Assembly (NCBI GenBank): GCA_037444505.1
Contig: JBBIMH010000017.1
Coordinates: 1,516-65,515 of the forward strand
Length of the DNA: 64,000 bases
Direction: 5' to 3'
Origin: Nitrospirota bacterium
Lineage (GTDB): Bacteria > Nitrospirota > UBA9217
This document shows positions 51,135-58,661 of the stretch, in pieces (within the stretch, counting starts at the first letter, position 1; each line of letters starts with the position of its first letter). Under the pieces are notes generated by a model that was not told the DNA's origin, did no database searches, and was given only the letters and a program-made list of their open reading frames with translations. Made by a program: the position numbers and the translations under genes.

Positions 51135-51163
51135 TTGAGTGTGATATGAGGGAGGTGATTTTC

Positions 51164-51718
51164 ATGGGGGCGACAGCGACTGCTGGTGGCAGGCGATATA
51201 CCTATGCTGATTATGAAAAACTTCCAGAGGGCGCCCCGTACCAGCTGATTGGAGGAGAACTCGTCATGACGCCCGCACCGACGCCTTATCATCAGAGGAT
51301 TTTAAGGAAGATCGGATATGCGCTCGTAACGTTTATTGAGGCAAAGGGCCTGGGAGAAATTCTGTACGCTCCTATAGATGTCTATCTTTCAGAGACTGAA
51401 ACCTATCAGCCGGATATAATATTCATTTCAAAGGAGAGGGCAGGTATAATAGGTGAAAAAAAGATAGAGGGCGCTCCCGATCTGGTAGTAGAAATACTCT
51501 CTCCTGCAACCGCCTATTATGATTTGCGGCAGAAGATGCATGTGTATGAAGGCTTCGGGGTGAGGGAATACTGGATCGTTGATCCGATTGAAAAGGCAGT
51601 TGATATCTATGAAAATCCGGGGCGGGAATTCAGGCTGTTCGGCGCAGCACGTGAAACCGGAGTAATCCGTTCGAAGCTGCTTTCAGGCTTTGAGATAGAT
51701 TTGGCTACGATATTCTGA
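51164..51718 (+). CDS. Uma2 family endonuclease (DUF820, PD-(D/E)xK-like)
   Basis: YTYADYEKLPEGAPYQLIGGELVMTPAPTPYHQ...PDIIFIS...APDLVVEILSP...D...K...Y...GVREYWIVDP is the typical Uma2 pattern. GGGAGG RBS 8 nt before ATG 51164. Confidence 0.88.
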   Translation: MGATATAGGRRYTYADYEKLPEGAPYQLIGGELVMTPAPTPYHQRILRKIGYALVTFIEAKGLGEILYAPIDVYLSETETYQPDIIFISKERAGIIGEKKIEGAPDLVVEILSPATAYYDLRQKMHVYEGFGVREYWIVDPIEKAVDIYENPGREFRLFGAARETGVIRSKLLSGFEIDLATIF

Positions 51719-51720
51719 TC

Positions 51721-52140
51721 TCACCTCCTCTTCCTCTTCTCCTCGTGCCTGATGTCGAGTCGATTGAGCTCTTCTATATTTTTGCTGAGGCGTTCTATCG
51801 TTTTGAGTGCCTGGCGCCATGTTTTCGCCTCTTCCGCCTTTTCGTGGGTCGGATACAGTCTTAGGAATTCTTCGAATTCCTGCAATGCCTTGGGGTAGTC
51901 GGCCTGGGGGTTGTCGTAGGCGACGAGGGTATAGGCGAGCCGGAACCTCGCCTCTGCGGAAATATCCGGATCGGAATTGTTTTTGATAATAGCCATGTAG
52001 GCTGATACTGCCTCGGTGTATTTCTTTTCAGATGCGAGTTTGTCTGCGGCCGTGAGCTCGCTGACAGGATGTGTCAGAGATGCGCAGCCTGTGCCGAGGA
52101 TGGTCACTGCAAATAGTATGGAAACAACAGCCTTAGACAT
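51721..52140 (-). CDS. TPR-like lipoprotein (BamD/YbgF-like fold)
   Basis: Signal peptide ending in ILGTGC, TPR-like helices (YTEAVSAYMAII, ARFRLAYTLVAY, ALQEFEEFLRLYP) and a basic C-terminal tail. The start is uncertain (52140 or 52185). Confidence 0.65.
   Translation of the reverse strand: MSKAVVSILFAVTILGTGCASLTHPVSELTAADKLASEKKYTEAVSAYMAIIKNNSDPDISAEARFRLAYTLVAYDNPQADYPKALQEFEEFLRLYPTHEKAEEAKTWRQALKTIERLSKNIEELNRLDIRHEEKRKRR
51733..51772 (+). repeat. Direct repeat B (within the 3' end of the lipoprotein gene)
   Basis: CCTCTTCTCCTCGTGCCTGATGTCGAGTCGATTGAGCTCT is the partner of repeat A, 913 bp away. Confidence 0.8.
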
Positions 52141-52376
52141 TGCATTCTTCAGGCCGACCACTGAGTCTGATAAGATAAATGACATATTATGACTTACCTT
52201 TCGCTGATAAAATGATTTAGGTTTAATCTGTGCTCATCCGTTTTTCCGTGTTCTGTGCATTCTATCCCTTCCAGGCTTCCTGCTCCAGTCTCTCAGTCTC
52301 TTCTCTTACCCATGCATGACACCATGCCGCTCGGCTGCTGATTTCATTCGCTCCATCCTCCTATGCCTGTGCTATC

Positions 52377-53777
52377 TTAAACGCTTCTTCTTTGGTCAAC
52401 GACGAATACGCTCTTGGGGATCGTCTTTGCATAGTCCTTGAGCTCTGTTGCTATCTCGGAAGCCTCGAGGGGATCCTTCAATTTGCGCCTCTCGTTGGTG
52501 ACGATGGCGATGGATATCGTCATCAAGGGGAAATTCATGGGTACGCCCTGCCTCGTCTTTCCCCGTATATAGCCCCGCTGTCTGTCCTCGGGGGAGTAGA
52601 ACTGCGGTATGCGCTCGTCGAACTTCGCTATGATTTCATTGCATACGTCGCGCATTCTGTCCGGTGTGGTGATGATGACGAAGTCGTCTCCGCCCACATG
52701 ACCGATGAAGTCGTCAGGCCCTCCCTTCGCCTTAACCGCTTCCTCGATGATTCTGGCGGTCTCCTTTATCACCTCGCTTCCGTGCGCATATCCGTATCTG
52801 TCGTTAAACGCCTTGAAATTGTCGAGGTCGACTACGCAGAACGCCATTAACTGGTCCGCTGCAAGCCTCTTCTTAAGGACATTTTCGATTGCTATTCCGC
52901 CGGGCAGTCTGGTGAGCGGGCTTGCATCGAGGTACATCTCCTCGAGCTGCTTGAGACGCCTGCCCATGGCGAGGAATGCATGCGCGAGACCGCCTATTTC
53001 GTCGCTGGCTCTTATCTCAGGGTCGTAGTCGAATTTCCCTTCTGCGATGCGCTCTGTGGCGACCTTGAGCTTGTGAATGGACGACGCGATATGATGTGTG
53101 ATGACAAGACCCGCAACCGCACCCACGACGATGCTGACGACGAAGAGCATGACCGTTGTCATGAATGCACGCGGGCCGATGCTTCCAATGAGCTGCATCT
53201 TTTTTTCCTGTGATTTCTTCGCATTTAACGCCATAGTCCTTATTCTGTCAGTGAGGTGGTCCATGATCTTTTTGAGCGCTCCATTGGATATCTCTCTAGC
53301 CTGGTCCGAGTTTCCCTCCTGCACGAGCCTCACCTCGCGGGCGAAGGTCTCCATGTATTTCTTGTGAAGCCCCTCTATCTCATCGAGAGGGAGGTCTGAT
53401 GTCTCCGGAAGTTTTTTGAGCGATTCGATCCACGAACGGAATTCATCTCCTCTCTTCCTGAACAGTGCGCGCATGTCCTTGCTATTAAGTATCAAATATC
53501 TCTTCTCATAGGTGTCCTGGGCGAGGATTGCATCGAGCATCTTGTCGGAGGCCTCCCGGACTGTGATGTCTATCGTGATGATGTCTTCATTCAGCCTGTT
53601 CAGCCTCTGGAGGTTTACGAGCGCATGTACAACGACCATTATCGTGAGCACGACGAGTACTGCATACCCGAGCAGCATCTTTTTTGCGATGGTGAGGCGT
53701 GAGAAAAGGGCGTGAGGAACCAGCTTTTTGAGCAGCGGCGACGGCTTGAAATCGTTTTTCGCAATGCTATGGCTCAT
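52377..53777 (-). CDS. Membrane sensor with HAMP and a non-canonical GGDEF domain (GGDDF)
   Basis: Two TM helices flank a ~150-aa periplasmic/helical sensor region, followed by HAMP (AEGKFDYDPEIRASDEIGGLAHAFLAM) and a GGDEF-fold domain with DLDNFKAFNDRYGYAHGSEV and GHVGGDDFVII. Confidence 0.88.
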   Translation of the reverse strand: MSHSIAKNDFKPSPLLKKLVPHALFSRLTIAKKMLLGYAVLVVLTIMVVVHALVNLQRLNRLNEDIITIDITVREASDKMLDAILAQDTYEKRYLILNSKDMRALFRKRGDEFRSWIESLKKLPETSDLPLDEIEGLHKKYMETFAREVRLVQEGNSDQAREISNGALKKIMDHLTDRIRTMALNAKKSQEKKMQLIGSIGPRAFMTTVMLFVVSIVVGAVAGLVITHHIASSIHKLKVATERIAEGKFDYDPEIRASDEIGGLAHAFLAMGRRLKQLEEMYLDASPLTRLPGGIAIENVLKKRLAADQLMAFCVVDLDNFKAFNDRYGYAHGSEVIKETARIIEEAVKAKGGPDDFIGHVGGDDFVIITTPDRMRDVCNEIIAKFDERIPQFYSPEDRQRGYIRGKTRQGVPMNFPLMTISIAIVTNERRKLKDPLEASEIATELKDYAKTIPKSVFVVDQRRSV

Positions 53778-53814: not shown

Positions 53815-55821
53815 CTACTCTGGGGATTCATCCTTGATCTCCGGCGCATATGGAGGTGCGCCCTCCTCTTCGCAATATCTGCGCGGCTCAGTGCCGGGGA
53901 TGTACGCCTCTCGGATACTCCGGCTGCAGTTCTCGGTCGCCAAGAGGCCTGTCCTGGGGTCTATTTGCTTGAATATAATGCCCTCCGGCGGCGAGAAATC
54001 CTCCGGCTCCGTGTCCTTTAGAGCCTTTTTCATGAACTCGAGCCATATGGGAAGGGCTGCGCGCGCACCTGTCTCGCGCGGCCCGATGCTCCTGTTGTCG
54101 TCATATCCCACCCATACGCCTGCTACGAGAGAGGGGACGTAACCGATAAACCAGGCGTCCCTGTAATCATTCGTGGTGCCCGTCTTTCCGGCCACAGGCC
54201 TTCCGAGCTCTCTCGCCTTCCAGCCTGTGCCGCGCTCTACGACTCCTTTCAGCAGGTATGTGATAAGGAAAGCGGTCTCCTGGCTCGTTACTATCTGTGG
54301 AGTCGAGGCATTCGTATATAGAATGCGTCCGCTGCTATCCGTGATCGTGAGTATGGCGGCAGGGTCTATCCTCGAGCCTTGATTTGCGAAGACCGCATAG
54401 GCAGACGTGATCTCGAGCAGTGTCAAGTCGGCAGTGCCGAGGGCGAGGGGTAGATATGGTTGCAGACGGCTTCTGATGCCGAGCCTTTCGGCGTATTCTA
54501 CGGCTTTATCAACGCCCACTTTTTCGAGCAGCCGAACCGTCGGCACATTCAGAGACTGCTCAAGAGCCCTTCTGAGCGTCACCTTTTCCTGATATGTATT
54601 GGTGAAGTTCCGCGGCGTCCATGTGTTATTACGGTCTATTTTGAATGTCACAGGCGAGTCGTCTAACATGTCAGATGGGCCGATCCCGCGCTCTATTGCA
54701 GCCGCGAATATAATGGGCTTGAAGGCCGAGCCCGGCTGGCGGTATGCCTGCCATGCGCGGTTGAATTGGCTCAGGCTGAAGTCCCTTCCCCCTACCATCG
54801 CCCTGATATGTCCGGTGCCGGGCTCTATCGCAACCAGTGCGGCCTGTAGGGGGGGGAGGTCCTTGAGCTTCTTTCCGCGCCGCGCCTCTATCTTGGAAAG
54901 CCCGGCTCTTACAGCGGCCTCTGCATATGACTGGAGCTCTTCGTTTATGCTTGTGTAGATGTTTATCCCTCCGGCATAGAGTATGCCGGATCCGAACTTC
55001 TCCTCCACCTTCTGGCGTATATACTCCACGAAGTACGGCGCGGCTTCACGTGCTACGACATCCGGCTCAGAGGGCAGGGGCTCCTTCTTCGCCTCCTCCG
55101 CCTCTTGTCGGCTGATCATGTTCAGCGCGACCATCCTGTTCAAGACATATGCACGCCTGCCCAGCGCGTTCTCGGGCTCTTTGAAGGGTGAGTATCTCTT
55201 CGGAGAGCGGGGCAGACCTGCGAGTAGCGCGCATTCTCCGAGGGTAAGCTCCTTTGCCGCCTTTCTGAAGTACGTCCTTGCAGCGGACTCTATGCCGTAG
55301 GCACCGCTCCCGAAGTATATCTGGTTGAGATAGAGCGAGAGTATTTCCTTCTTCGTGTATCGCTGCTCTATTCTTAGGGCGAGGGCCATTTCCTTCAGTT
55401 TTCTGTGTATGCTCCTCTCCGGCGTGAGGAAGAGGACTTTAGAAAGCTGCTGTGTCAGGGTGCTGCCTCCCTCCACCACCCTGCCGGCCCTGATGTTTCT
55501 GTACAATGCCCGGGCGATGCCCCGGATGTCCAAGCCTTTGTGTTGATAGAACCTTGCGTCTTCCGTCGCGATGAGAGCTTGAATAAACCTCTCCGGAACA
55601 TCCTCGAGCCTTACAGGGGTGCGGTTCTCCACATAGAACTCCGCAAGGAGCCTGCCTGAATCGGAATAGACCCGAGAGGTGACGCTGGGCCTGTATTCTT
55701 CCAGCGCCTGTACCTCGGGCAGATCCCAGACCGAAAAAAGAAAGAAACCGACTGACCCTCCTGTGAGAACCGCGGTGAGGACCAAAAACAGATAGAGCAG
55801 GATGCCTTTTTCTCTGAACAT
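53815..55821 (-). CDS. mrcA: Class A penicillin-binding protein 1A (glycosyltransferase + transpeptidase)
   Basis: GT51 motifs (EDARFYQHKG, GGSTLTQQL, RKLKE) and transpeptidase motifs (SAFKP, SLN, KTGTT). Confidence 0.95.
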   Translation of the reverse strand: MFREKGILLYLFLVLTAVLTGGSVGFFLFSVWDLPEVQALEEYRPSVTSRVYSDSGRLLAEFYVENRTPVRLEDVPERFIQALIATEDARFYQHKGLDIRGIARALYRNIRAGRVVEGGSTLTQQLSKVLFLTPERSIHRKLKEMALALRIEQRYTKKEILSLYLNQIYFGSGAYGIESAARTYFRKAAKELTLGECALLAGLPRSPKRYSPFKEPENALGRRAYVLNRMVALNMISRQEAEEAKKEPLPSEPDVVAREAAPYFVEYIRQKVEEKFGSGILYAGGINIYTSINEELQSYAEAAVRAGLSKIEARRGKKLKDLPPLQAALVAIEPGTGHIRAMVGGRDFSLSQFNRAWQAYRQPGSAFKPIIFAAAIERGIGPSDMLDDSPVTFKIDRNNTWTPRNFTNTYQEKVTLRRALEQSLNVPTVRLLEKVGVDKAVEYAERLGIRSRLQPYLPLALGTADLTLLEITSAYAVFANQGSRIDPAAILTITDSSGRILYTNASTPQIVTSQETAFLITYLLKGVVERGTGWKARELGRPVAGKTGTTNDYRDAWFIGYVPSLVAGVWVGYDDNRSIGPRETGARAALPIWLEFMKKALKDTEPEDFSPPEGIIFKQIDPRTGLLATENCSRSIREAYIPGTEPRRYCEEEGAPPYAPEIKDESPE

Positions 55822-55973: not shown

Positions 55974-58661
55974 CTAAAAATCAAAGCCGACCGAAAAATA
56001 GACCTGGAATCTGCCGGACTCGGCAAGGCCCAAGTCGAGCCTCACCGGGCCTATGAGCGTGTCTGCATGGACGCCGATGCCGCCGCCTTTCTTCAGGTCT
56101 TTGGCGGACATCTCGTCTCTGGCATTCCAGACATTGGCGGCTTGGGCAGTTAACTGTAGATAGACTGCTCTCAAGAACTTTAGCTGATATTCGGCGGCCT
56201 TCCATCTATACGCAGCCGTGAAGGCGAGCATGTTGGAGCCCAGGAATTCGCGACGTTTGTAGCCCAAGAGGGGATAAGAAATCAGATAGTCAACTCCTCC
56301 CAGACCGAATTTTTCAAAGAAAGGGATTGCGCCGCTACCGAGTCCTCCTGCGGCTTCGATGACCGCTGTGTGGCGGGCTGCAAGCGGTATATTCGCCTGC
56401 CCCATGAGCTCCGTCTTTCTATAGTTTATATCGCTTCCATAACCCTCCGCCGCTGTTTCGTACGAGCCCTTGAACAGAAAACCTTTGTGTGCGAACGGAT
56501 GGCTGTCGAGGGTGTCTATCGTGGAGAGGACGGCCCAACTGCCTATATGTCGGTCTTCTTTTGGAAGACCTCCGAAGACAGTGGTTGTTCGGTCCGATTC
56601 ATACCTGTATCTGATATATGTATCCCCGAACCGCAACCACTGGAGTCCTAAAGAGACATGAAGGCCTATGCGTGCGACCTCCGCTTCCGCAGTCTTTTCT
56701 TCGTCTTCGTAGATAAAGTAATTTCTTCTGTTGTAGAAACCTTCAATGCTGTGGACAAGGGGTGAGCGGAGAAATACAGGCGAGTGATAGCCCAGGGCGA
56801 TGTCGGTATAATTTCCATATCGGGTGTTCAGGTATAGTTTTATTCCGCGGCCTGTGATATTGTCTATTACTATATCCGTAAGCCCTGTGAATGAGTCCTC
56901 GAGGTCGAATCTCATGCCGAGCCTGACCGTGCCTTTCGGCTTCTCCTTAATGTTGATGGTGAGCAAGACACCGTTATCTCTACTCTCCGACAGCCCCACG
57001 TTCAACGATTCGAAGTATCCTAGCGCGTACAGGCGCTGTATGTCTGCGCTCAGGGTATTTATGTTCAGCGGTTGACCGATTGCGGTTTCTATCTCGCGCC
57101 TGATCAGAGAAAGCCTGGTCTTCTTTTGGCCCCTGATGCCTATGGCCTCCACCCTGCCCTCGAACAAGGATATATGCAAGAGGCCGTCTTTGATCTCAGC
57201 CCTGTCTACGTGGACGAGGGGGTAACCCTTCCTCCGCCACTTTTCTACGAGCCTTCCGAGTCCTTCGATCAGCCTTGCGGCATTCAACGGCCTGCCTGTT
57301 TGCTGCCCGATTTCCGTCAAGATGTCTGAAGAGGGAATGAGGTCATTGCCAGTGATTTCGATTCCAGTGAGCACAGGGTTTTCCGTTACCCTCAGGATCC
57401 CAGTGTGTCTGTTGACCGGCCCCTCGAGTTCGAGGGAAATATCCCAAAAAAAACCGAGTCTGAACAGCTCGGCAAGACCGCGTTCGATCTCTCCAGCCGA
57501 GACCTCTCGGCCTGTTATGGATGCATCGATTATCCGCCTGATGAATTCTTCCGGCACGACCTTGTTCCCGGCTATCACAATATCCTCGATCATGTATCTC
57601 TCTTTGTCGGTCTTTCCGGCCTTTCGTCCGACCATCTCCTTTATCTTCCGGACTGCGGCCTCTGCCGCCTTTTCTCCTATGAGTATTATCTCTTTTATCT
57701 GCGGAAAGTCGGCGAAGGAATATGCGGATGTATCCGGGGAAATGACTATGTCCGCCATTGCTGCCTGGCGCAGGGTCTCTTTCTGAGTATTTAGCGTTAC
57801 CGACTGATCCATGACGTCGAAGAGCGTCTTGAGCCTGTCTCTTTTGAAAGGTCTGGCCGAGGGATCTATGGCAATGACTATTTCAGCGCCCATATCCCTT
57901 GCTACATCGACAGGGAGGTTCTTGGTCATCCCTCCGTCCACATAGAGCCTGTTATGTATCTCCACCGGCTGGAAGATGAAAGGGATGGCAGCGCTCGCCC
58001 GCATTGCATCCTGGAGTAGCCCTTTACCGATGGCCTCAGGCTCGCCTGTTTCGAGATTCGTTGCTATCGCCCTAAAAGGTATAGGCAGCCTGTCGAAGTC
58101 CTGGCGCGCCTCGAACGAGGCCGCAAGGGTCTTTATCTGGAGCAGATTTGCAAGTTTCTGGCCGGCAGAGAGGCCGGTAGGGGGGGTGAACCTGCCGCCT
58201 CTGATGTTGAACTCGAGCAGATGCCTGCCTGCGGACTGTTTCTGCTCTTGCGTTTGGAATGCGCGGCCGGGCGAATCGCGGAACATGTCGTTCCAGTCAT
58301 TCGAAATGAGTATCTGCTCGATCTCATCCGGCGAATATCCTGCTGCATATAGACCGCCGATGAGAGCGCCCATGCTTGTGCCTGTTATGACGGACGGCGT
58401 CACGCCCTCCCTATGCAGGACCTTGAGCACCCCGACGGATGCAGCGGCCCTTGCGCCTCCTCCTGCGAGGGCGATGCCTATCTTGGGCATACCCTTTTGC
58501 TCGACCGGTAGAATCGTTCTCAGCCCGCTGTAGACGGTCGTATAATCGAGTGTGAAGCGGATGGGTCTTTTGCGGGCGGTCTGCTCTGCAAAAAGGCCCG
58601 GCTCACCTGGTGCGAGCAGGGATATGGCAAGCGCTGTCATCAAGACAAATCGGGTCTTCAT
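55974..58661 (-). CDS. Patatin-POTRA-Omp85 barrel protein (PlpD-like, type Vd secretion architecture)
   Basis: Signal peptide, patatin motifs (GGGARAAA, GTSMGA, DGG), POTRA-like middle segments and a C-terminal surface-antigen (D15/BamA-type) beta-barrel ending in ...VYFSVGFDF. Confidence 0.88.
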   Translation of the reverse strand: MKTRFVLMTALAISLLAPGEPGLFAEQTARKRPIRFTLDYTTVYSGLRTILPVEQKGMPKIGIALAGGGARAAASVGVLKVLHREGVTPSVITGTSMGALIGGLYAAGYSPDEIEQILISNDWNDMFRDSPGRAFQTQEQKQSAGRHLLEFNIRGGRFTPPTGLSAGQKLANLLQIKTLAASFEARQDFDRLPIPFRAIATNLETGEPEAIGKGLLQDAMRASAAIPFIFQPVEIHNRLYVDGGMTKNLPVDVARDMGAEIVIAIDPSARPFKRDRLKTLFDVMDQSVTLNTQKETLRQAAMADIVISPDTSAYSFADFPQIKEIILIGEKAAEAAVRKIKEMVGRKAGKTDKERYMIEDIVIAGNKVVPEEFIRRIIDASITGREVSAGEIERGLAELFRLGFFWDISLELEGPVNRHTGILRVTENPVLTGIEITGNDLIPSSDILTEIGQQTGRPLNAARLIEGLGRLVEKWRRKGYPLVHVDRAEIKDGLLHISLFEGRVEAIGIRGQKKTRLSLIRREIETAIGQPLNINTLSADIQRLYALGYFESLNVGLSESRDNGVLLTINIKEKPKGTVRLGMRFDLEDSFTGLTDIVIDNITGRGIKLYLNTRYGNYTDIALGYHSPVFLRSPLVHSIEGFYNRRNYFIYEDEEKTAEAEVARIGLHVSLGLQWLRFGDTYIRYRYESDRTTTVFGGLPKEDRHIGSWAVLSTIDTLDSHPFAHKGFLFKGSYETAAEGYGSDINYRKTELMGQANIPLAARHTAVIEAAGGLGSGAIPFFEKFGLGGVDYLISYPLLGYKRREFLGSNMLAFTAAYRWKAAEYQLKFLRAVYLQLTAQAANVWNARDEMSAKDLKKGGGIGVHADTLIGPVRLDLGLAESGRFQVYFSVGFDF

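Follow-up and report, generated by a model that had tools for sequence, protein, structure and literature searches.

A periplasmic-sensor GGDDF cyclase from a Nitrospirota bacterium: a probable relative of GSU1937 and candidate 3',3'-cGAMP synthase

Which cyclic dinucleotide is made by a membrane-bound GGDEF protein that carries a serine where diguanylate cyclases carry their guanine-specifying aspartate? The question is raised by a gene for a 466-amino acid sensor cyclase at positions 52377-53777 (stop codon included) of the reverse strand of a 64,000-nucleotide stretch, here called the window, of contig JBBIMH010000017.1 from a Nitrospirota bacterium. The original prediction had recognized in Ser334 the hallmark of Hypr GGDEF enzymes, and had proposed a different or mixed cyclic dinucleotide as a possible product and a distinct subfamily marked by LPGG and GGDDF motifs. 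Our analysis supports such a Hypr-like reading, because the window cyclase appears to follow the rule that joins the serine to a GGD motif, to lack the arginine that contacts the base across the dimer and to belong to a GSU1937-type family. At a probability of roughly 0.6, these sequence features suggest an envelope-signal-gated homodimeric synthase that converts ATP and GTP to 3',3'-cGAMP (cyclic GMP-AMP), with some cyclic di-GMP (c-di-GMP) and without product inhibition. The combination of Ser, GGDDF and a transmembrane (TM)-HAMP architecture is itself already published, in 2022, for GSU1937 of Geobacter sulfurreducens (PMC8835794).

The gene was delimited from the list of open reading frames (ORFs), its translation, Pfam and full-length alignments, in which the protein shares 36-73% identity with family members, and its domain order is CHASE3-TM-HAMP-GGDDF. 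All features below lie on the (-) strand unless stated otherwise. The family N-terminal motif K-[ILM]-L-x-G-Y precedes predicted TM helix 1 (residues ~35-55, 53613-53675), which falls in a Kyte-Doolittle hydrophobic segment at residues 28-59. A CHASE3-like sensor domain follows (residues 72-183, 53229-53564; Pfam E 8.8e-07, 29.3 bits against a cut-off of 28, with a weaker 4HB_MCP_1 match), then predicted TM helix 2 (residues ~205-227, 53097-53165; hydrophobic segment 196-234) and a HAMP domain (residues 226-277, 52947-53102; Pfam E 6.2e-11). The two hydrophobic segments flank CHASE3, and the predicted topology is the usual one, with the sensor in the periplasm, then HAMP, and the output domain in the cytoplasm. 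The earlier description of a HAMP-linked membrane sensor is thereby borne out.

The C terminus forms a GGDDF-type GGDEF catalytic domain (residues 283-466, 52380-52931; Pfam/TIGR, AlphaFold2 and Foldseek), which is the sole output domain; Pfam detects neither EAL nor HD-GYP. The domain passes the superfamily cut-offs of PF00990 (E 6.9e-14, 52.4 bits against 23.8) and TIGR00254 (56.7 against 37.4 bits). The PF00990 match (residues 287-385) extends over no more than model positions 5-109 of 161, and the cyclase domain is therefore divergent in its C-terminal half. In NCBIfam only the generic GGDEF domain passes, and DgcN/YfiN ranks highest among the named cyclases, all of which stay below threshold. 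An AlphaFold2 model from 54 family sequences reached a predicted local distance difference test score (pLDDT) of 93.5 and a predicted template modeling score (pTM) of 0.89, and the top 50 Foldseek matches in the PDB were all diguanylate-cyclase GGDEF domains (probability 1.0, TM-score ~0.6-0.8). The nearest named homologues are from Nitrospirota. A relationship to the palm-2 domain of Cas10/Cmr2, brought up by the letters GGDD, was rejected, since the Pfam match (E 0.064) lies below the cut-off and the structure matches GGDEF cyclases only.

Ser334 (codon AGC, 52776-52778) lies in the stretch DLDNFKAFNDRYGYAHGSEV (residues 317-336). A phmmer comparison with PDB chains and the family profile, in the same register, pair GYAHGS of the window cyclase with GHxxGD of solved diguanylate cyclases. 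In the PleD chains 2wb4 and 9g85, query residue 21 corresponds to PleD residue 310 and no gap precedes the site; this offset therefore places Ser334 at PleD residue 344, the base-specifying position at the Watson-Crick face (PleD D344, GacA S348). The proposed equivalence to PleD D344 thus survived its check, and Ser replaces the canonical Asp at the position that recognizes the base. Upstream of it, D317-L-D319-N-F-K322-A-F-N325 (52803-52829) aligns to DxDxFKxxND of solved cyclases and provides the metal-binding Asp, the phosphate Lys and the sugar-face Asn; N325 (52803-52805) is in register with the Hypr sugar-face Asn (GacA N339). The GGDDF motif (residues 362-366, 52680-52694) keeps the metal ligand D364. 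Its fourth residue, D365, replaces the Glu general base, so that the motif departs from the canonical [G/A/S]G[D/E]E[F/Y].

Two further sites differ from canonical cyclases. In the family-profile alignment, LTRLPGGI of the window cyclase stands opposite LTRLNNRL of the canonical GGDEF domain 8qj3. This register of the LPGG turn (residues 291-294, 52896-52907; profile alignment and clade statistics) therefore puts G293 in place of the conserved Asn and G294 (52896-52898) in place of the Arg of LxNRR. Taking G294 as the cross-dimer position assumes that Arg537 of 5LLX corresponds to the first Arg of NRR; residue 295 (Ile) is likewise not Arg. The second site is the RxxD inhibitory site (I-site), which many but not all diguanylate cyclases have five residues upstream of the motif and which had been read as absent here: its position holds G353-P-D-D356 (52710-52721, from the translation), with the Asp kept and the Arg missing, and the only R..D strings in the protein are RASD in HAMP (residues 256-259) and RMRD after the motif (residues 374-377). 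The coordinates given at the outset, such as those of the Ser334 codon and GGDDF, all proved correct upon translation.

In Hypr enzymes, the Ser hydrogen-bonds the Watson-Crick face of A or G, and the Asn contacts the sugar face (PMC6456294). The third motif residue holds Mg2+ and must be Asp if Ser is present, the 'Goldilocks' rule, and the Glu at the fourth position acts as general base across the dimer; natural Ser/Thr enzymes were reported as exclusively GGDE[F/Y] (PMC6456294). The N-terminal turn contributes a conserved Arg that reaches across the dimer to stack on the base and favors guanine; cGAMP is the main product of Hypr enzymes in which this cross-dimer position holds Tyr, Ser, Ala or Gln, and more c-di-GMP is made by those with Arg (PMC6456294). 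In the window cyclase, the Ser at the Watson-Crick face (Ser334), the sugar-face Asn (Asn325), the Asp as third motif residue (Asp364) and the non-Arg cross-dimer residue (Gly294) appear to fit this cGAMP-leaning pattern. The fourth motif residue, D365 instead of Glu, does not.

Two points of reference show what this mixture amounts to. Like PleD and WspR, the window cyclase has the GGDEF fold and the scaffold DxDxFKxxND...G-x-x-x-G-x...GG[DE]xF, but it exchanges Asp344 for Ser, GH for GY, LPNRR for LPGGI and GGEEF for GGDDF, has no RxxD I-site and diverges in the second half of the domain. With GacA (GSU1658/Gmet_1914; PDB 5VS9/6D9M), the enzyme on which the Hypr GGDEF class was founded, it shares the fold, the Watson-Crick-face Ser, the third-motif Asp, the sugar-face Asn and a non-Arg cross-dimer residue. 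However, the soluble Rec-GGDEF protein GacA has a true GGDEF motif (Glu base), a cross-dimer Tyr304 and a functional I-site (R393) (PMC6456294), whereas the window cyclase is membrane-bound, carries GGDDF and Gly294 and lacks the I-site, and the similarity between the two is at the general GGDEF level only (6d9m, E 1.9e-4).

That a cyclase with GGDDF and the Hypr Ser can be active was shown by others. The link to the CHARACTERISED enzyme GSU1937 was found through a full-text search for 'GGDDF'. In the account of the Hammond and Bond laboratories, GacA and GSU1937 alone among the GGDEF proteins of G. sulfurreducens carry the Hypr Ser; GSU1937, a 'Hypr GGDDF' enzyme and second cGAMP synthase, combines 'transmembrane HAMP domains' with GGDDF, contains no EAL or HD-GYP, and has 'many homologues within Deltaproteobacteria' (PMC8835794). 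Its deletion lowered the output of a cGAMP-riboswitch reporter by ~25% on fumarate and by ~70% on Fe(III) citrate (PMC8835794). A GacA-Rec::GSU1937-GGDDF fusion (F4) gave both cGAMP and c-di-GMP biosensor signals in Escherichia coli, and its GADDF mutant lost both; wild-type GSU1937 and three other fusions were inactive there (PMC8835794). The authors describe GSU1937 as the first GGDDF enzyme known to be active (PMC8835794).

These experiments also bear on whether the window domain could be catalytically dead, that is, a degenerate GGDEF whose output role would be to bind nucleotides or to interact with proteins. Motifs other than GG[DE]EF are usually inactive, the inactivity of wild-type GSU1937 and of three of its four fusions in E. 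coli would be in line with this, and PA3258 of Pseudomonas aeruginosa, which also has GGDDF, is reported to show no cyclase phenotype (PMC8835794). PA3258 is coupled to an EAL domain and is likened to the window protein by its motif. Against a dead domain, the active F4 fusion loses its activity in the GADDF mutant (PMC8835794), hundreds of clusters show no variation in the metal, phosphate and base ligands, and the window protein has no other catalytic domain for a regulatory GGDEF to serve. We consider a dead domain very improbable.

How unusual is the motif? A search with residues 280-466 returned 1,157 proteins at E<=1e-5. Among the best 120 of these (55-82% identical), GGDDF is essentially invariant and LPGG nearly so, and at position 334 there are 62 with Ser, 59 with Asn and none with Asp; these features are therefore not due to chance. 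No other column co-varies with the choice between Ser and Asn. The signature of these homologues reads D-A-S-P-L-T-R-L-P-G-G, D-L-D-N-F-K-A-F-N-D-R-Y-G-Y and G-H-[IV]-G-G-D-D-F, with R409, F416-P417, K447, K451, S456 and D461-x-R463 as further residues.

When 1.84 billion cluster representatives (50% identity) were searched exhaustively with HMMER, 872 matched at E<=1e-30. The best 150 of these comprise 156 aligned domains, of which 143 have GGDDF and 8 GGDDY. GGDDF therefore marks a large GGDEF sub-clade and is no peculiarity of the window protein; the subfamily suspected at the outset is real, and its GGDDF motif is clade-wide. Position 334 is Asp in 82 of the 156 domains, Ser in 36 and Asn in 32. 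D317, K322, D326, D364, D365, R409 and K451 are invariant in the clade; since metal, phosphate and base ligands are thus kept throughout, we argue that catalysis is retained. Among 158 domains, Arg is outside the four commonest residues at position 353 (the Arg of RxxD) in each of the Asp-, Ser- and Asn-type groups, and likewise at the cross-dimer position 294, which is mostly Asn, Gly, Ser or Thr. N325 is invariant in Asp- and Asn-type members, whereas 15 of 44 Ser-type representatives have Ser, Gly or Ala there (Thr or Val singly). Five Asp-type proteins of ~750-790 amino acids (P0179, P0199, P0223, P0226 and P0237) have an additional, degenerate copy of the domain at the N terminus, which has kept GGDDF or NGDDF and lost the DxD, Lys and Asn ligands.

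A neighbor-joining tree of 159 domains separates three groups. Asp-type domains form a large block, in which most proteins have ~125 N-terminal residues (Rec-like) or are multidomain; the Ser-type domains with 'LPGN' form a coherent block; and an 'LPGG' block contains the window protein, with Ser and Asn forms interspersed. The tree needs at least 12 changes at position 334, and the Ser and Asn forms are concentrated in the sensor-HAMP proteins of the clade. In every readable locus, Ser is encoded by AGY (the window and six further distinct loci) and Asn by AAY; Asp GAY to Asn AAY to Ser AGY is therefore a path of single transitions. A literature search on Asn at the specificity position gave nothing relevant. 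One Asn-type member, found as the same gene in two separate assemblies (L005 and L006), has an in-frame TAG in its HAMP domain (L005 4968-4970; IQNQH*LGELSNAF, where relatives read D-E-[IL]-G, a GAG to TAG change) that splits the gene into ORFs of 225 and 195 amino acids; possible explanations are a pseudogene, a polymorphism and a stop codon that is read through.

The distribution at position 334 invites a reading of the window protein as an ordinary diguanylate cyclase, in which Ser334 or Asn334 still binds GTP and the physiological product is c-di-GMP. Most of the wider clade, with its 82 of 156 domains, has the canonical Asp, and a D-to-S substitution left GSU3350 a pure diguanylate cyclase (PMC6456294). 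The GSU1937 fusion, too, gave c-di-GMP signals comparable to those of GacA in E. coli (PMC8835794), and no cGAMP riboswitch was detected in the window or related loci. On the other hand, Ser and Asn are fixed in the sensor-HAMP branch and not sporadic, and the cross-dimer Arg that favors guanine is absent. The Ser of GacA admits ATP and its exchange for Asp yields a GTP-only enzyme (PMC6456294), and in Geobacter itself the deletion of GSU1937 lowers the output of the cGAMP reporter (PMC8835794). In view of these points we regard c-di-GMP as an unlikely answer.

The repeated interchange of Asn and Ser within the LPGG sub-group may also be taken to signify a specificity unlike that of GacA and GSU1937, with c-di-AMP, some other dinucleotide of mixed purines or a linear pppNpN as the product. 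Hypr GGDEF proteins accept other purine nucleoside triphosphates (NTPs) (PMC6456294), and an Asp general base combined with a cross-dimer Gly differs from every enzyme assayed so far. The slight Cas10 palm-2 resemblance around GGDD (E 0.064) would point the same way, but it is below threshold, and Foldseek returns diguanylate-cyclase GGDEF domains only. Because, in addition, the only products reported for clade members are cGAMP and c-di-GMP, such a product seems to us quite unlikely, and a cGAMP synthase remains the preferred reading.

This reading draws on the kinship with GSU1937. The junction primer of the scarless GSU1937 deletion, read in frame, encodes VQKLIASS/TPGSNY (slash, junction). 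PGSNY is part of the family C-terminal motif K-x-x-P-G-S-N-Y-x-x-D-R-R, whose window counterpart is KTIPKSVFVVDQRR, and VQKL occupies residues 13-16 of 438-amino acid family members. The Ser-type representative P0162 is from Geoalkalibacter sp. and counts Desulfuromonas versatilis and Desulfuromonas sp. among its relatives; all 110 relatives have GGDDF, 103 with Ser and 7 with Asn, and the named Desulfuromonadales members are all Ser-type GGDDF proteins. A search from P0303 yielded 438-amino acid proteins named 'Geobacteraceae bacterium' or 'Geobacter sp.'. Four P0303 relatives contain VQKLIAS at residues 13-19 (21-27 in one 446-amino acid protein), nine contain TPGSNY at residues 424-429 (415-420 in two 429-amino acid proteins), and QKLIAS and TPGSNY occur together in three. 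The homologue searches from P0162 and then P0303 gave no entry labelled G. sulfurreducens. Two genomic primer sequences from PMC8835794 had no exact match in the genome contig collection, and primer matches to Geobacteraceae loci at the DNA level were at chance level only. Identification of GSU1937 by the published 'G372A' position was ruled out, as that numbering follows GacA or the fusion. From the 14 primer-encoded residues and the published description, there is a high probability that GSU1937 is a member of the ~438-amino acid family.

Over 442 residues, from the motif before TM helix 1 to the C-terminal DRR, the window protein and P0426, a Geobacteraceae member, align at 37% identity (E 4e-97) with all active-site motifs in register; the catalytic domains of the window protein and a Geobacteraceae member are 47% identical. 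With GSU1937 it has in common the TM-HAMP N terminus, the lack of EAL and HD-GYP, the base-specifying Ser and GGDDF, and with the Geobacteraceae proteins that carry the primer-encoded termini also the end-to-end alignment and the same downstream lipoprotein gene. Differences to the GSU1937 group are LPGG (Gly as cross-dimer residue) instead of LPGN (Asn), PKSVF instead of PGSNY near the C terminus, an N terminus longer by 25 residues, alternation of Ser and Asn among relatives, and a lineage in Nitrospirota rather than Desulfuromonadales. Judged by these alignments, the window cyclase is probably a full-length relative of GSU1937 at the level of an orthologue, with LPGG and LPGN as sister sub-groups.

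The lipoprotein gene is a small ORF for a TPR/YfiO-like protein of 154 amino acids (51721-52185; Pfam and homologous ORFs) directly downstream of the cyclase gene. Its product matches YfiO in Pfam (E 1e-05, 25.9 bits against a cut-off of 25) and is a probable lipoprotein, with a signal peptide, Cys34 (52084-52086) and a basic C-terminal coiled coil (...LD[IV]xxEEKR[KR]); the likely start is M16 (52140). A homologue lies directly downstream of the cyclase in L001 (8934-9173), L002/3, L004 (8975-9451), L005/6, L008 (5624-6055) and the Geobacteraceae loci L009 (6314-6817) and L011 (6314-6802), a range that starts with Nitrospirota-like contigs, and among the loci examined it is absent in L007 only. 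Pairwise E-values of the partners range from 1e-8 to 1e-35, and a partner profile built without Geobacter sequences matches the Geobacteraceae ones at 1e-14 to 1e-17. The shared two-gene module therefore supports orthology of the cyclases across phyla.

In relatives, the cyclase and partner genes often overlap by 4 nucleotides. In the window they do not overlap, and the spacer of ~190-235 nucleotides holds, within 52306-52362, a micro-ORF of 13 codons (MKSAAERHGVMHG) with ATG at 52347 and a TAA that ends at 52306, the start lying eight nucleotides behind a strong AGGAGGA (52362-52356).

The arrangement resembles that of YfiN/TpbB/DgcN of the YfiBNR system, in which an inner-membrane periplasmic sensor-HAMP-GGDEF protein is likewise encoded beside a small envelope lipoprotein. 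DgcN is the best NCBIfam protein model (equivalog), second only to TIGR00254, and TpbB is among the top structural matches; at 51.8 bits against a cut-off of 325, however, the DgcN equivalog score permits analogy only. YfiN has a canonical GGDEF domain with Asp and makes c-di-GMP, and its partners, YfiR and the OmpA-like YfiB, are not homologous to the TPR lipoprotein. The pairing nevertheless suggests that the lipoprotein may act with the periplasmic sensor in a way analogous to, and not homologous with, YfiB/YfiR-YfiN. We found no literature on the cyclase-lipoprotein pairing, and a literature search on GSU1936/GSU1938 gave nothing relevant.

For the window cyclase as a cGAMP synthase, we infer the product, the signal and the role of the lipoprotein as follows. 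The protein would sit in the inner membrane, with a periplasmic CHASE3-like four-helix module between its two TM helices, and drive the C-terminal GGDDF cyclase through HAMP. A periplasmic or envelope signal, possibly relayed by the downstream TPR lipoprotein, would shift the register of the homodimer through HAMP so that the half-sites face each other. Each half-site may bind one purine NTP, with D317 and D364 holding Mg2+, K322 and K451 the phosphates, N325 at the sugar face and Ser334 at the Watson-Crick face. ATP and GTP would both be accepted, because Ser334 can hydrogen-bond A or G and the residue in place of the guanine-favoring Arg is Gly294. D365 would stand in for Glu as the cross-dimer general base, a deviation that GSU1937 tolerates as well. 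The product would be mainly 3',3'-cGAMP with some c-di-GMP, and as there is no RxxD I-site, output would not be limited by product feedback.

Several points weigh against this proposal. A search for riboswitches of the GEMM type, suggested at the outset, returned nothing: Rfam, including the GEMM families, gave no match in the window (gathering threshold or E<=1) or in 97 kilobases of related loci, a small sample that says little about the whole genome, and the same sequences contained no obvious cGAMP effector. The LPGG sub-group is known from its sequences, and the catalytic domain of the window protein is only 47% identical to the Geobacteraceae one. The evidence for GSU1937 itself comes from reporters, biosensors and an artificial fusion (PMC8835794), and its assignment to the family draws on primer-encoded residues and a description. 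The Ser/Asn interchange in the LPGG sub-group may mean that position 334 is less decisive for the product than in GacA. Finally, Asp-type members also have GGDDF and lack the Arg; both are therefore traits of the clade and not specific to Hypr enzymes.

Upstream of the cyclase gene, 37 nucleotides from its start, lies a gene for the class A penicillin-binding protein PBP1A (53815-55821; Pfam Transgly and Transpeptidase), which has the same place in L001, the closest relative; a Transgly gene is upstream in L008. The other neighbors are housekeeping genes. Look-ups of the exact cyclase and PBP1A products returned no record. Promoter and terminator scans around the cyclase gene gave nothing above the shuffled expectation. 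Just upstream of PBP1A, 55974-58661 encodes an 895-amino acid protein with a patatin-like phospholipase, POTRA repeats and an Omp85 barrel, a PlpD-like architecture. On the other side, a gene for a putative endonuclease of the Uma2 family (51146-51718, (+) strand) lies between the lipoprotein and ABC-2 transporter genes. In L001 and L008 the lipoprotein is also followed by ABC-2 transporter genes, but the intervening ORFs have no Pfam hits and none is annotated as Uma2, so the Uma2 gene looks like a local insertion.

The value of the single window gene is modest, because its combination of residues was already described for GSU1937. The family has more to offer. In the literature searched, the size of the GGDDF clade, the switching between Asp, Asn and Ser by single-nucleotide steps and the Asn-type enzymes appear to be undescribed, as do the clade-wide loss of the cross-dimer Arg and I-site, the lipoprotein partner and the presence of the family in Nitrospirota-like genomes. 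We offer tentatively, as a possibility against which we would still bet, that the sensor-HAMP members and their obligate TPR lipoprotein form an envelope-sensing module for cGAMP or a mixed-purine dinucleotide in Nitrospirota and several phyla outside 'Deltaproteobacteria', within a very large and hardly studied GGDDF clade (at least 872 clusters) that moves by single-nucleotide steps from Asp to Asn to Ser, goes back and forth between Ser and Asn in the LPGG sub-group, and has Asn-type members with their own product spectrum. The motif of the clade, its D/N/S switching, the loss of Arg and I-site and the lipoprotein partner all bear on the rules of GGDEF specificity. 'Diguanylate cyclase' is the routine annotation of GGDEF proteins; if the family makes 3',3'-cGAMP, the c-di-GMP networks derived from such annotation would be mistaken where these genes are concerned, in Nitrospirota, Zixibacteria, Thermodesulfobacteriota and others, and Hypr-type cGAMP signalling would extend well past the Geobacter, Myxococcus and Bdellovibrio lineages that defined it.

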